632 nt of DNA from Escherichia coli (GTDB lineage Bacteria > Pseudomonadota > Gammaproteobacteria > Enterobacterales > Enterobacteriaceae). Each line of letters starts with the position of its first letter. Within the stretch, counting starts at the first letter, position 1. The stretch lies in the NCBI RefSeq assembly GCF_003334335.1, contig NZ_QOWQ01000166.1. One strand, written 5' to 3'. The translations under genes were made by a program, and so were the position numbers. The notes under the pieces were generated by a model. The model worked only from the letters and a program-made list of their open reading frames with translations. It was not told the DNA's origin and did not search any database. Of this stretch, positions 1 through 632 are shown one piece after another.

Positions 1-62
1 CCGCAGGCGCTTACGACCAGCGGCAACGTCAGCGCGCAGAGTTTCATTTTCAGCTCTCGCAT
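1..62 (-). CDS. Rz1: o-spanin outer-membrane lipoprotein, lambda Rz1-like, embedded in the +1 frame of Rz (partial)
   Basis: Minus-strand ATG at 62..60, with a second in-frame ATG at 47..45, in the +1 frame relative to Rz. Translation to the window edge: [20 protein letters not shown]. This is a lipoprotein-type signal peptide with a lipobox-like VVSAC, the Cys codon at 5..3. It closely parallels the lambda Rz1 N-terminus as I recall it (MLKLKMMLCVMMLPLVVVGC). An embedded out-of-frame o-spanin inside the i-spanin gene is the established lambda arrangement. Confidence 0.8.
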
Positions 63-282
63 CGGCTAATTCCCTCGAGTATCTGGCATCAAGTGCAGCA
101 ACATCACGCTGGCGCTGCTGCATATCAGTAATGGTTGCATTTGCCTGCTCCAGCTCACTGACTTTTTTATCGCGCTGCTCTTTGTAGGTTATGGCGTTAT
201 CACGGTAATGATTCAGCCCCAGACTAAGCACACCACAGGCTACCAGCATGACAATAATCACCACACACAGAACACGGTTCAT
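1..282 (-). CDS. Rz: i-spanin, lambda Rz-like (N-terminal 94 codons; 3' end lies beyond the window start)
   Basis: Minus-strand ORF with ATG at 282..280 (complement), open to position 1. Hand translation: [94 protein letters not shown]. It has a short N-terminus, one hydrophobic signal-anchor helix, then a charged, Ala/Arg/Glu/Gln-rich segment typical of the periplasmic coiled-coil of i-spanins. Several blocks match lambda Rz as I recall it ([37 protein letters not shown]). Not in the ORF track, presumably because it is truncated by the window edge. Confidence 0.9.
71..76 (-). promoter_or_regulatory. Shine-Dalgarno-like element (GAGGGA) upstream of the Rz1 start
   Basis: On the minus strand GAGGGA lies 8 nt upstream of the Rz1 ATG at 62..60. 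It sits inside the Rz reading frame, as expected for an embedded gene. Assigned on sequence complementarity and spacing only. Confidence 0.35.
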
Positions 283-283
283 A

Positions 284-370
284 TCACCACCAACGAATTG
301 CCCAGACCAGAACAGCAATGGCCACAATACGAATGGCAAATGCCATTGCCCGAATAAGTTCAGCACTCAT
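284..370 (-). CDS. small single-helix hydrophobic peptide, 28 aa, function unknown (paralog C of a tandem triplet)
   Basis: Minus-strand ATG at 370..368, TGA at 286..284. Translation: [28 protein letters not shown]. Short polar N-terminus, then a hydrophobic helix with an Arg/Trp C-terminal end. It aligns without gaps to the neighbouring ORF at 382..498 (RAMAFAI versus RALAFAI). The stop is 1 nt from the Rz ATG. Below the ORF-track length cutoff. The upstream SD is weak (AAAAAG), so expression may depend on coupling. Confidence 0.5.
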
Positions 371-381
371 CTTTTTAAAGT

Positions 382-498
382 TCACGATTTCAGCGCAATG
401 ACCAGTTTTGCCAGCCCATACAGCATCGGAGACACAGCAATACCAACAGCCACCCACTTAATAGCAAAAGCCAGCGCTCTGCTGATGTCATCAGTCAC
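382..498 (-). CDS. small single-helix hydrophobic peptide, about 38 aa, function unknown (paralog B of a tandem triplet)
   Basis: Same frame as the ORF-track entry 382..597, but I place the start at GTG 498..496; an alternative GTG at 504..502 overlaps the upstream stop as GTGA. Stop TGA at 384..382. Translation from GTG498: (M)TDDISRALAFAIKWVAVGIAVSPMLYGLAKLVIALKS. The portion of the track ORF upstream of 504 (CDCRYFIFTNAGCSFSVPRLGDVVF...) is not helix-like and is antisense-frame overlap with the better-supported ORF at 501..632. The N-terminus MTDDIS and core RALAFAIKWVAV match paralog C, and VGIAVSPML matches paralog A. Confidence 0.5.
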   Translation of the reverse strand: MTDDISRALAFAIKWVAVGIAVSPMLYGLAKLVIALKS

Positions 499-500
499 TG

Positions 501-632
501 TCACCCCAGCAGCCCCGACGAAGACAACATCACCCAGGCGAGGGACAGAAAAAGAGCAACCAGCATTAGTGAAAATGAAATACCGACAATCACACACAGG
601 ACCTTTGCCGGCGTTATGAGTTTGTCTGACAT
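501..632 (-). CDS. small single-helix hydrophobic peptide, 43 aa if the ATG at the window edge is the true start, function unknown (paralog A of a tandem triplet)
   Basis: Minus-strand ATG at 632..630, exactly at the window edge, so upstream extension cannot be excluded. Stop TGA at 503..501. Translation: MSDKLITPAKVLCVIVGISFSLMLVALFLSLAWVMLSSSGLLG. Polar N-terminus with two Lys, then a hydrophobic stretch of about 26 residues. The N-terminus MSDKLI parallels MTDDIS and MSAELI in the next two ORFs, which supports this ATG as a genuine start. Core VGISFSLML matches VGIAVSPML in paralog B. Not in the ORF track. Confidence 0.45.
   Translation of the reverse strand: MSDKLITPAKVLCVIVGISFSLMLVALFLSLAWVMLSSSGLLG

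Follow-up and report, generated by a model that had tools for sequence, protein, structure and literature searches.

The stretch of Escherichia coli DNA analysed here, 632 nt in its full length (the window), ends on a minus-strand ATG, which raises the question of whether this codon opens a gene of its own or belongs to the interior of a larger protein, and of how far the array of hydrophobic mini-ORFs to which it belongs extends. An earlier note on the window had stated that the window ends exactly on the start codon of a mini-ORF named paralog A and that the array may continue beyond the edge. The first statement is correct, as the minus-strand ATG at 632..630 opens a 43-codon ORF (ORF A). 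The features of the window, together with the mini-ORF adjoining its edge, are as follows:

1..62, minus strand, +1 frame inside Rz: start of the embedded Rz1 o-spanin gene, which runs off the window
1..282, minus strand: 5' part of the Rz i-spanin gene, codons 1-94, which runs off the window
284..370, minus strand: ORF C, 28 aa, with the same PHROGs as ORF B, of which it is a paralog
382..498, minus strand: ORF B, 38 aa, VTDDISRALAFAIKWVAVGIAVSPMLYGLAKLVIALKS, PHROGs 1115, 3246 and 4493
501..632, minus strand: ORF A, a 43-aa single-pass hydrophobic peptide, MSDKLITPAKVLCVIVGISFSLMLVALFLSLAWVMLSSSGLLG, PHROG 4906
630..632, minus strand: ATG start codon of ORF A, a CDS boundary in both public annotations
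L002 3903-3998, beyond the window edge: ORF0, 31 aa, one helix, MKMIKMDWKFLLVWLIPFLWVVAQLITAIKG, annotated in PhiR5_1

Location of the window in a phage lysis operon

The window is 100% identical to positions 24331-24962 of PV340545.1 (Escherichia phage PhiR5_1) and to positions 174628-175259 of NZ_CP075632.1 (an E. coli prophage), and at least 80% of it is present in 615 of 5426 complete E. coli genomes. The flanks beyond the window were read from the identical public records, L001 and L002, and a window position equals 4633 minus the L002 position. Read as its reverse complement, the window corresponds to a section of the late lysis operon carried by a lambdoid (Stx-phage-like) E. coli prophage. 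Both public annotations place a CDS boundary on the window-edge base (L001/L002 4001..4132), and the coincidence of the window end with a start codon therefore reflects how the window was cut and is not a matter of biology.

In PhiR5_1, a DUF1327 gene and an antisense DUF1823 gene are inserted between S and R (L001 1449-2292); the prophage of E. coli 2018-166 lacks this insert (L002 2399-2404 compared), and the terminase modules downstream of Rz also differ between the two, so that the window is common to otherwise mosaic phages. Taking both annotations together, all four mini-ORFs are already on record as hypothetical proteins: ORF0, A, and B are annotated in PhiR5_1, and A, B, and C by NCBI PGAP. 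On the plus strand, an ATG-initiated ORF of 123 aa (window 248-619) lies antisense to ORFs A, B, and C. Its product is hydrophilic and rich in Thr, Pro, and His, a composition as expected for the complement of a Leu/Val/Ala-rich coding sequence; it is unannotated in both records and is most likely a mirror artefact.

The gene order in the identical records is S, R, a 273-nt spacer, a KilAC antirepressor gene (ant), ORF0 (31 aa), ORF A (43 aa), ORF B (38 aa), ORF C (28 aa), and Rz/Rz1. The full Rz gene (L002 4351-4845), annotated as endopeptidase Rz or lysis protein, matches the Rz-like spanin family PHROG 13 (E=1.7e-77), and the Rz1 ORF (L002 4571-4756), which contains a lipobox-like LVVSAC, matches the Rz-like spanin family PHROG 3198 (E=1.6e-30). 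Rz1 is unannotated in both public records. Holin S, termed "class II holin family protein" by PGAP, contains PF04971 in all relatives. R matches the phage 21 lysozyme structures 3hde, 3hdf and 4zpu (RrrD) with E~1e-16, aligned from residue 12; the R N-terminus is MSRKLRYGLSAAVLALIAAGASA, and the structure match takes in the N-terminal anchor. As judged from these matches, the cassette is of the pinholin/predicted SAR-endolysin/Rz-Rz1 type.

ORF0 and the genes upstream of the window

The array does continue beyond the window, by one mini-ORF. The stop codon of ORF0 (TAA) lies 2 nt before the ORF A ATG (TAAag), and its ATG overlaps the TGA of the 231-aa KilAC antirepressor gene in an ATGA arrangement. 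The earlier note had suggested looking for additional mini-ORFs with an M-[ST]-x-[DEK]-[LI] start followed by a helix; ORF0 has the helix but not the motif, and the next gene upstream is already the 231-aa KilAC ant. Beyond ant and the 273-nt spacer lie the SAR-type lysozyme R and the P21-type pinholin S, and the guess that an endolysin and a holin stand upstream was thus borne out. The effect of the window edge is therefore an ordinary one: a single further mini-ORF is cut off, followed by known genes.

ORF0 matches PHROG 6632 with E=1.6e-4 (residues 7-30 on profile positions 20-43 of 45), which is weak for a 31-aa query. Near-identical homologs of ORF0 occur in other layouts, the ATG and the stop are fixed among its seven alleles, and an ATG stands exactly 7 codons ahead of the conserved Trp whichever of three unrelated upstream contexts is present. 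In the window allele, 127 nt of the spacer known from the ant-less layouts are replaced by the ant module (L002 3024-3921), whose right boundary is inside ORF0 at codon 7/8.

The spacer that separates R from the first peptide in those ant-less layouts contains a textbook intrinsic-terminator hairpin, AAAAACCCCGUUUGUUGGCAGCAAGCGGGGUUUUGUUUUUAU (L004 2449-2489, and also at the class-3 locus L019), with an MFE of -25.2 kcal/mol (z=-4.6; 0 of 200 shuffles as stable). Because the hairpin is located within the late operon, the peptides and Rz of these layouts should be accessible only to Q-antiterminated transcription. The hairpin is missing from the window allele, in which the ant module takes its place. 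Between S and Rz of the window allele, no promoter, convincing terminator, or Rfam RNA (E<=1) was detected; the sole promoter-like site in the region is inside ant on the opposite strand, and on neither strand does one flank the peptide ORFs.

ORF A is a stand-alone gene

The sequence directly upstream of the ORF A ATG reads ...ATCAAGGGGTAAAGATG and contains the Shine-Dalgarno (SD) sequence AAGGGG with a 5-nt spacer, just outside the window (L002 3990-3995). An SD was to be sought 5-10 nt ahead of the ATG according to the earlier note, and it is present at 5 nt. The predicted anti-SD duplex of -7.7 kcal/mol is within the top 5% of all positions and on a par with the starts of holin S (-7.4) and R (-8.1). 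ORF A ends at a TGA (503..501), and its residues 1-43 match positions 7-49 of the 49 positions of PHROG 4906 (E=4.5e-21). Its relatives (n=103) have a modal length of 43 aa, and 43 of 70 full-length family members are exactly 43 aa long with the homologous MSDKLI N-terminus kept. The stop at codon 44 is retained in 24 of 24 ORF A nucleotide alleles, which were ascertained through codons 16-26 only. Additionally, in a comparison with 230 background small ORFs, the peak 19-residue hydrophobicity of ORF A ranks within the top 0.4%. The ATG at 632..630 is the genuine start of a stand-alone 43-codon gene.

The possibility that ORF A is the C-terminal part of a larger protein has to be weighed against this result, as the earlier note had named an in-frame extension without a stop and with a better upstream start as the observation that would speak for it. 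Taken literally, such an extension exists: in the window allele, the ORF A frame is open for 68 codons upstream and contains ATGs at codons -62 and -60 (L002 3815 and 3821) behind an SD-like sequence (-7.8 kcal/mol), and a 105-aa protein could begin at the -62 ATG, within the last part of the antirepressor gene. The comparative data, however, show that the extension is non-coding. The comparison set consisted of 80 loci collected via Rz and 120 collected via a degenerate back-translation of the ORF A core, which admitted any synonymous variant, and yielded 150 ORF A contexts. The open upstream stretch is confined to 6 of these 150 contexts, all of which carry the window's own allele, whereas a stop follows after 3 codons in 76 of 76 other ORF0-preceded contexts. 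In L146, L171, and L201, the closest relatives with ant, an ATC>ATT change that is Ile-synonymous in the ORF0 frame produces a TAA in that of ORF A. The match to PHROG 4906 is limited to residues 63-105 of the 105-aa ORF, MSDKLI is where the members of the ORF A family start, and the extension overlaps both ant (PHROG 63, E=1e-57) and ORF0 (pN/pS 0.30), each with a coding signal of its own. The 105-aa ORF was rejected on these comparative grounds; as a protein it is hardly credible and can be regarded as effectively refuted, and the 68-codon opening is an allele-specific accident.

ORFs B and C

ORF B is an N-terminally truncated member of a 48-aa family, the long form of which, MKNGLELKAPVTDD..., occurs in other layouts. 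As it stands in the window (382-504; L002 4096-4251), ORF B has neither the ATG nor the initial 10 residues (MKNGLELKAP) of the 48-aa form, and it must start at a GTG. This start is assigned to the GTG at 498, with GGGG 5 nt ahead of it (junction GGGGTGAca from ORF A); an alternative GTG at 504 overlaps the ORF A stop. The PGAP call for ORF B is a 51-aa version from a CTG codon overlapping ORF A, and frameshift-derived A-B fusion proteins of 83 aa are also on record (e.g. P0270). ORF B matches PHROGs 1115, 3246, and 4493 with E=6e-25, 2e-20, and 5e-17, respectively, and its family extends into Salmonella at 65-80% identity with its length retained.

ORF C follows after a gap of 11 nt and has no SD (+0.3 kcal/mol). 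Its matches to the same three PHROGs have E=3.8e-6, 9e-5, and 0.05. The last codons of ORF C (GGTGGTGA) form the SD of Rz, and the two genes meet at a TGAtATG junction.

Coding signal and relationships of the peptides

The ratios of nonsynonymous to synonymous polymorphism, computed on pattern-ascertained alleles, and the numbers of variable columns by codon position are as follows:

ORF0: pN/pS 0.30 in frame, 0.82 and 0.84 in the shifted frames; variable columns 4:6:9
ORF A: pN/pS 0.64 in frame, 0.77 and 1.08 in the shifted frames; variable columns 18:18:18
ORF B: pN/pS 0.26 in frame, 1.17 and 2.04 in the shifted frames; variable columns 12:11:22
ORF C: pN/pS 0.50 in frame, 1.37 and 1.01 in the shifted frames; variable columns 11:9:15

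These values show frame-specific purifying selection in ORF0, B, and C, and only a weak form of it in ORF A. In the helix of ORF A, 2 of 19 substitutions are polar where 5.7 would be expected (P=0.035), a modest avoidance, and the absence of stops carries little information (P=0.11). The hydrophobic helix of each peptide is an outlier, within the top 0.4-6.5% of the 230 background small ORFs.

The designation of A, B, and C as paralogs did not hold. Only B and C are related (hhalign P=1.2e-6, 82% probability; shuffle z 5.2), whereas ORF A has no detectable homology to B, C, or ORF0 (shuffle z 1.5, 1.2, and -0.4; hhalign P 0.25, 0.11, and 0.63). Likewise, neither ORF A nor ORF0 shows significant similarity to B, C, each other, the pinholin, or the Rz anchor. 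By these comparisons, ORF A and ORF0 are separate families, and "paralog A" is a misnomer.

Searches of the reference collections gave family names at most. Pfam, including DUF2730, contains no match to ORF0, A, or B-long even at E<=10; NCBIfam contains no family for any of the peptides; PADLOC yields none at E<=1 for five peptide forms; and no holin family of PHROG or Pfam is matched by the peptides. In hhalign comparisons with the PF04971 family, P is 0.0067 for B (2.5% probability), 0.96 for C, and 0.9 for ORF0, and A gives no alignment. The peptides do match the PHROG profiles 4906, 6632, and 1115/3246/4493, all of which are labelled "unknown function", and membership thus provides a name and no mechanism. 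In public records, the peptides are named "hypothetical", "membrane", or "prophage protein" only, and the literature consulted by topic and accession, including PMC8136144, PMC10462455, and PMC10903887, does not mention these ORFs. The peptides are real, widespread, and uncharacterised.

Variation of the R-to-Rz interval

The R-to-Rz interval is modular, and several layouts of it are observed: ant-ORF0-A-B-C, as in the window; ORF0-A-B-C; B-long-A; C-long alone; and one peptide of 32 aa by itself, whose head is ORF0-like and whose IRWW tail is C-like. The layouts ant-ORF0-A and B-A-B-C are rarer. Among the 150 contexts, at most four mini-ORFs are present, ORF A invariably follows ORF0 or B, and the bounds are always R or ant upstream and Rz downstream. 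In the array to which the window belongs, four mini-ORFs lie between ant/R and Rz. No junction between the first peptide and Rz exceeds 13 nt in any layout.

Some copies are decayed: A is frameshifted in L039-41, an ATG has been lost in L062, and the ORF0 of L172 contains an internal stop. Because the copy number and order vary (one to four peptides) and decayed copies occur, the peptides are dispensable.

The 32-aa peptide, MAEKLSTWKFILIWLVFVIMASGYFIGQIRWW, fills the R-to-Rz interval of classic Stx phages such as H-19B (AF034975.3 17590-17685), with 45 other phage records, and it has no annotated feature among the records listed, H-19B included. In its head it is similar to ORF0 (z=4.4), and in its tail to ORF C (IRWW). 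A different rearrangement is found on an ENA metagenome scaffold of 554 nt (L202 43-222; protein P0312), in which residues 1-36 of holin S are fused to the helix of a B peptide, the join lying at the micro-homology AGTGGG.GGC, and A, B, and C come next; the deletion took the 3' end of S, R, and the 5' end of B. This chimera is present on one contig only, which may represent a defective prophage. In L035, a 255-aa ORF with a DPPY-like motif (FYCDPPYW), located at about 2216-2983 (interval positions 1111-1878 after R), separates the peptides from Rz and by eye looks like a DNA methyltransferase, and a different 188-aa gene is found where the KilAC ant would be. The R-to-Rz interval appears to be a cargo-insertion hotspot.

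Comparison with known lysis systems

The cassette shares the order S-R-...-Rz, the PF04971 holin, and the embedded Rz1 with those of phage 21, H-19B, and the Stx phages (S21, R21, Rz/Rz1), and Stx-phage cassettes have been described as pinholin, SAR endolysin, and Rz (PMC8136144). In the canonical description of phage 21 and Stx phages, nothing stands between R and Rz, whereas ant and four mini-ORFs are present here.

Accessory membrane proteins acting with SAR endolysins are known from other phages. The Mu gp25 "releasin" (DUF2730) is a small membrane-anchored accessory protein that controls SAR-endolysin release (PMC9239132). A similar kind of role may be envisaged for the peptides described here by analogy, although they have no sequence relationship with gp25; gp25 contains a cytoplasmic domain whereas the peptides are little more than one helix, and Mu has no holin, unlike the present cassette. 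In P1, the extra small membrane proteins LydC and LydD work with the SAR endolysin and modulate lysis according to host or conditions (PMC9025707). The peptides have no homology to LydC/LydD or to antiholins, and with 28-43 aa and one helix they are shorter than known holins and antiholins. The type I toxins Hok, Ldr, and TisB resemble them in length (28-50 aa) and in having a single hydrophobic helix; unlike these toxins, the peptides have no promoter of their own, antisense RNA, or long 5' UTR and are arranged in tandem, translationally chained in a phage late operon.

Possible roles of the peptides

The explanation that best accounts for the locus as a whole, and which we consider probable, is that of a lysis-operon array in which the window edge falls on the authentic ORF A ATG and whose peptides would be translated by coupling and tune lysis. 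The four ORFs would be translated by coupling or re-initiation from the Q-dependent late transcript, and the products would insert as single-pass peptides into the inner membrane while this membrane is accumulating the pinholin, the membrane-tethered SAR endolysin, and the i-spanin. The peptides may then tune the timing of lysis, the SAR endolysin's release, or the activity of the spanin, and the last ORF would also hand ribosomes to Rz, whose SD is inside its final codons. Precedents for a lysis-modulating role are the Mu releasin and P1 LydC/LydD, which have no sequence relation to the peptides; coupled translation, membrane insertion, and lysis tuning taken together represent a serious possibility that falls somewhat short of probable.

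The main rival explanation, which is considered rather unlikely, regards the mini-ORFs as recombination scars that merely relay ribosomes from R or ant to the start of Rz, the peptides themselves being functionless. The short junctions (<=13 nt everywhere) and the position of the Rz SD within the codons of the last peptide are as such a relay would have them, and the variation in number, order, and chimerism (at least five layouts plus the class-3 peptide, with its ORF0-like head and C-like tail), the weak constraint on ORF A, and the tolerance of decayed copies are also in its favor. A pure relay, however, would not be expected to keep a hydrophobic helix in every ORF (top 0.4-6.5%) or a frame-specific selection signal (0.30 for ORF0, 0.26 for B, and 0.50 for C, against about 1 or more in the shifted frames); the B family retains its length at 65-80% identity into Salmonella, and the short layouts demonstrate that Rz can be reached without a long chain. 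Less probable still is an action unrelated to lysis, with the peptides serving as small membrane toxins, as factors of superinfection exclusion or of anti-phage defence, or in another "moron" function. The interval is a cargo hotspot (ant here and the 255-aa ORF in L035), the size and single-helix design of the peptides resemble those of type I toxins and small exclusion proteins, and in lambda the "moron" bor adjoins Rz in the lysis region. These points are outweighed by the tight coupling into the late operon of the peptides, for which no separate promoter-like site on the coding strand, no antisense RNA, and no match in Rfam or PADLOC was detected. In addition, the strong terminator hairpin upstream in the ant-less layouts would block non-antiterminated transcription, so that expression in lysogens is unlikely in these layouts.

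A very improbable reading is that the peptides are decoy copies of the helix of a core lysis protein, either pinholin TMD2 or the N-terminal anchor of Rz, and co-assemble with it. ORF B aligns with pinholin TMD2 (KWVAVGIAVSPMLYGL versus QWAAIGV-LGSLLFGL; 122 of 20000 shuffles), the natural S(1-36)::B chimera (P0312/L202) is joined at that point, and ORF A looks by eye like the Rz anchor (VLCV...MLVA). Despite the one natural chimera, an origin of B as a TMD2 copy was not supported (hhalign of B versus S, P=0.0067, 2.5% probability; DNA z 1.9), and an origin of the mini-ORFs as duplicated 5' ends of Rz was rejected (ORF A versus the adjacent Rz, protein z=1.8, DNA z=0.3). The z of 3.3 obtained with a lambda Rz sequence does not convince when 20 tests were made, and with about 20 comparisons the values are within chance for hydrophobic helices.

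The lysis-tuning reading can also be put in a more general form, which is tentative and, in its full extent, doubtful. The one to four single-helix peptides between the SAR endolysin and Rz in the P21-type cassettes of E. coli and Salmonella lambdoid prophages may represent an unrecognised class of lysis modulators, comprising three unrelated families shuffled as cassettes, which would act in the inner membrane on the pinholin, on the release of the SAR domain, or on the anchor of the i-spanin; how many of them a given prophage has, and in which combination, would determine its timing of lysis and hence of Shiga-toxin release.

Significance

Only S, R, and Rz/Rz1 appear in the classic accounts of Stx-phage and phage-21-type lysis cassettes, but the R-to-Rz interval in fact carries conserved, coupled membrane-peptide genes, which are often unannotated (e.g. 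in H-19B). For research on phage lysis, the peptides offer a modest lead. Should they be no more than ribosome relays, they would provide a neat case of translational coupling shaping tiny ORFs, and if it is true that they tune lysis, the timing of phage and Shiga-toxin release would be affected.
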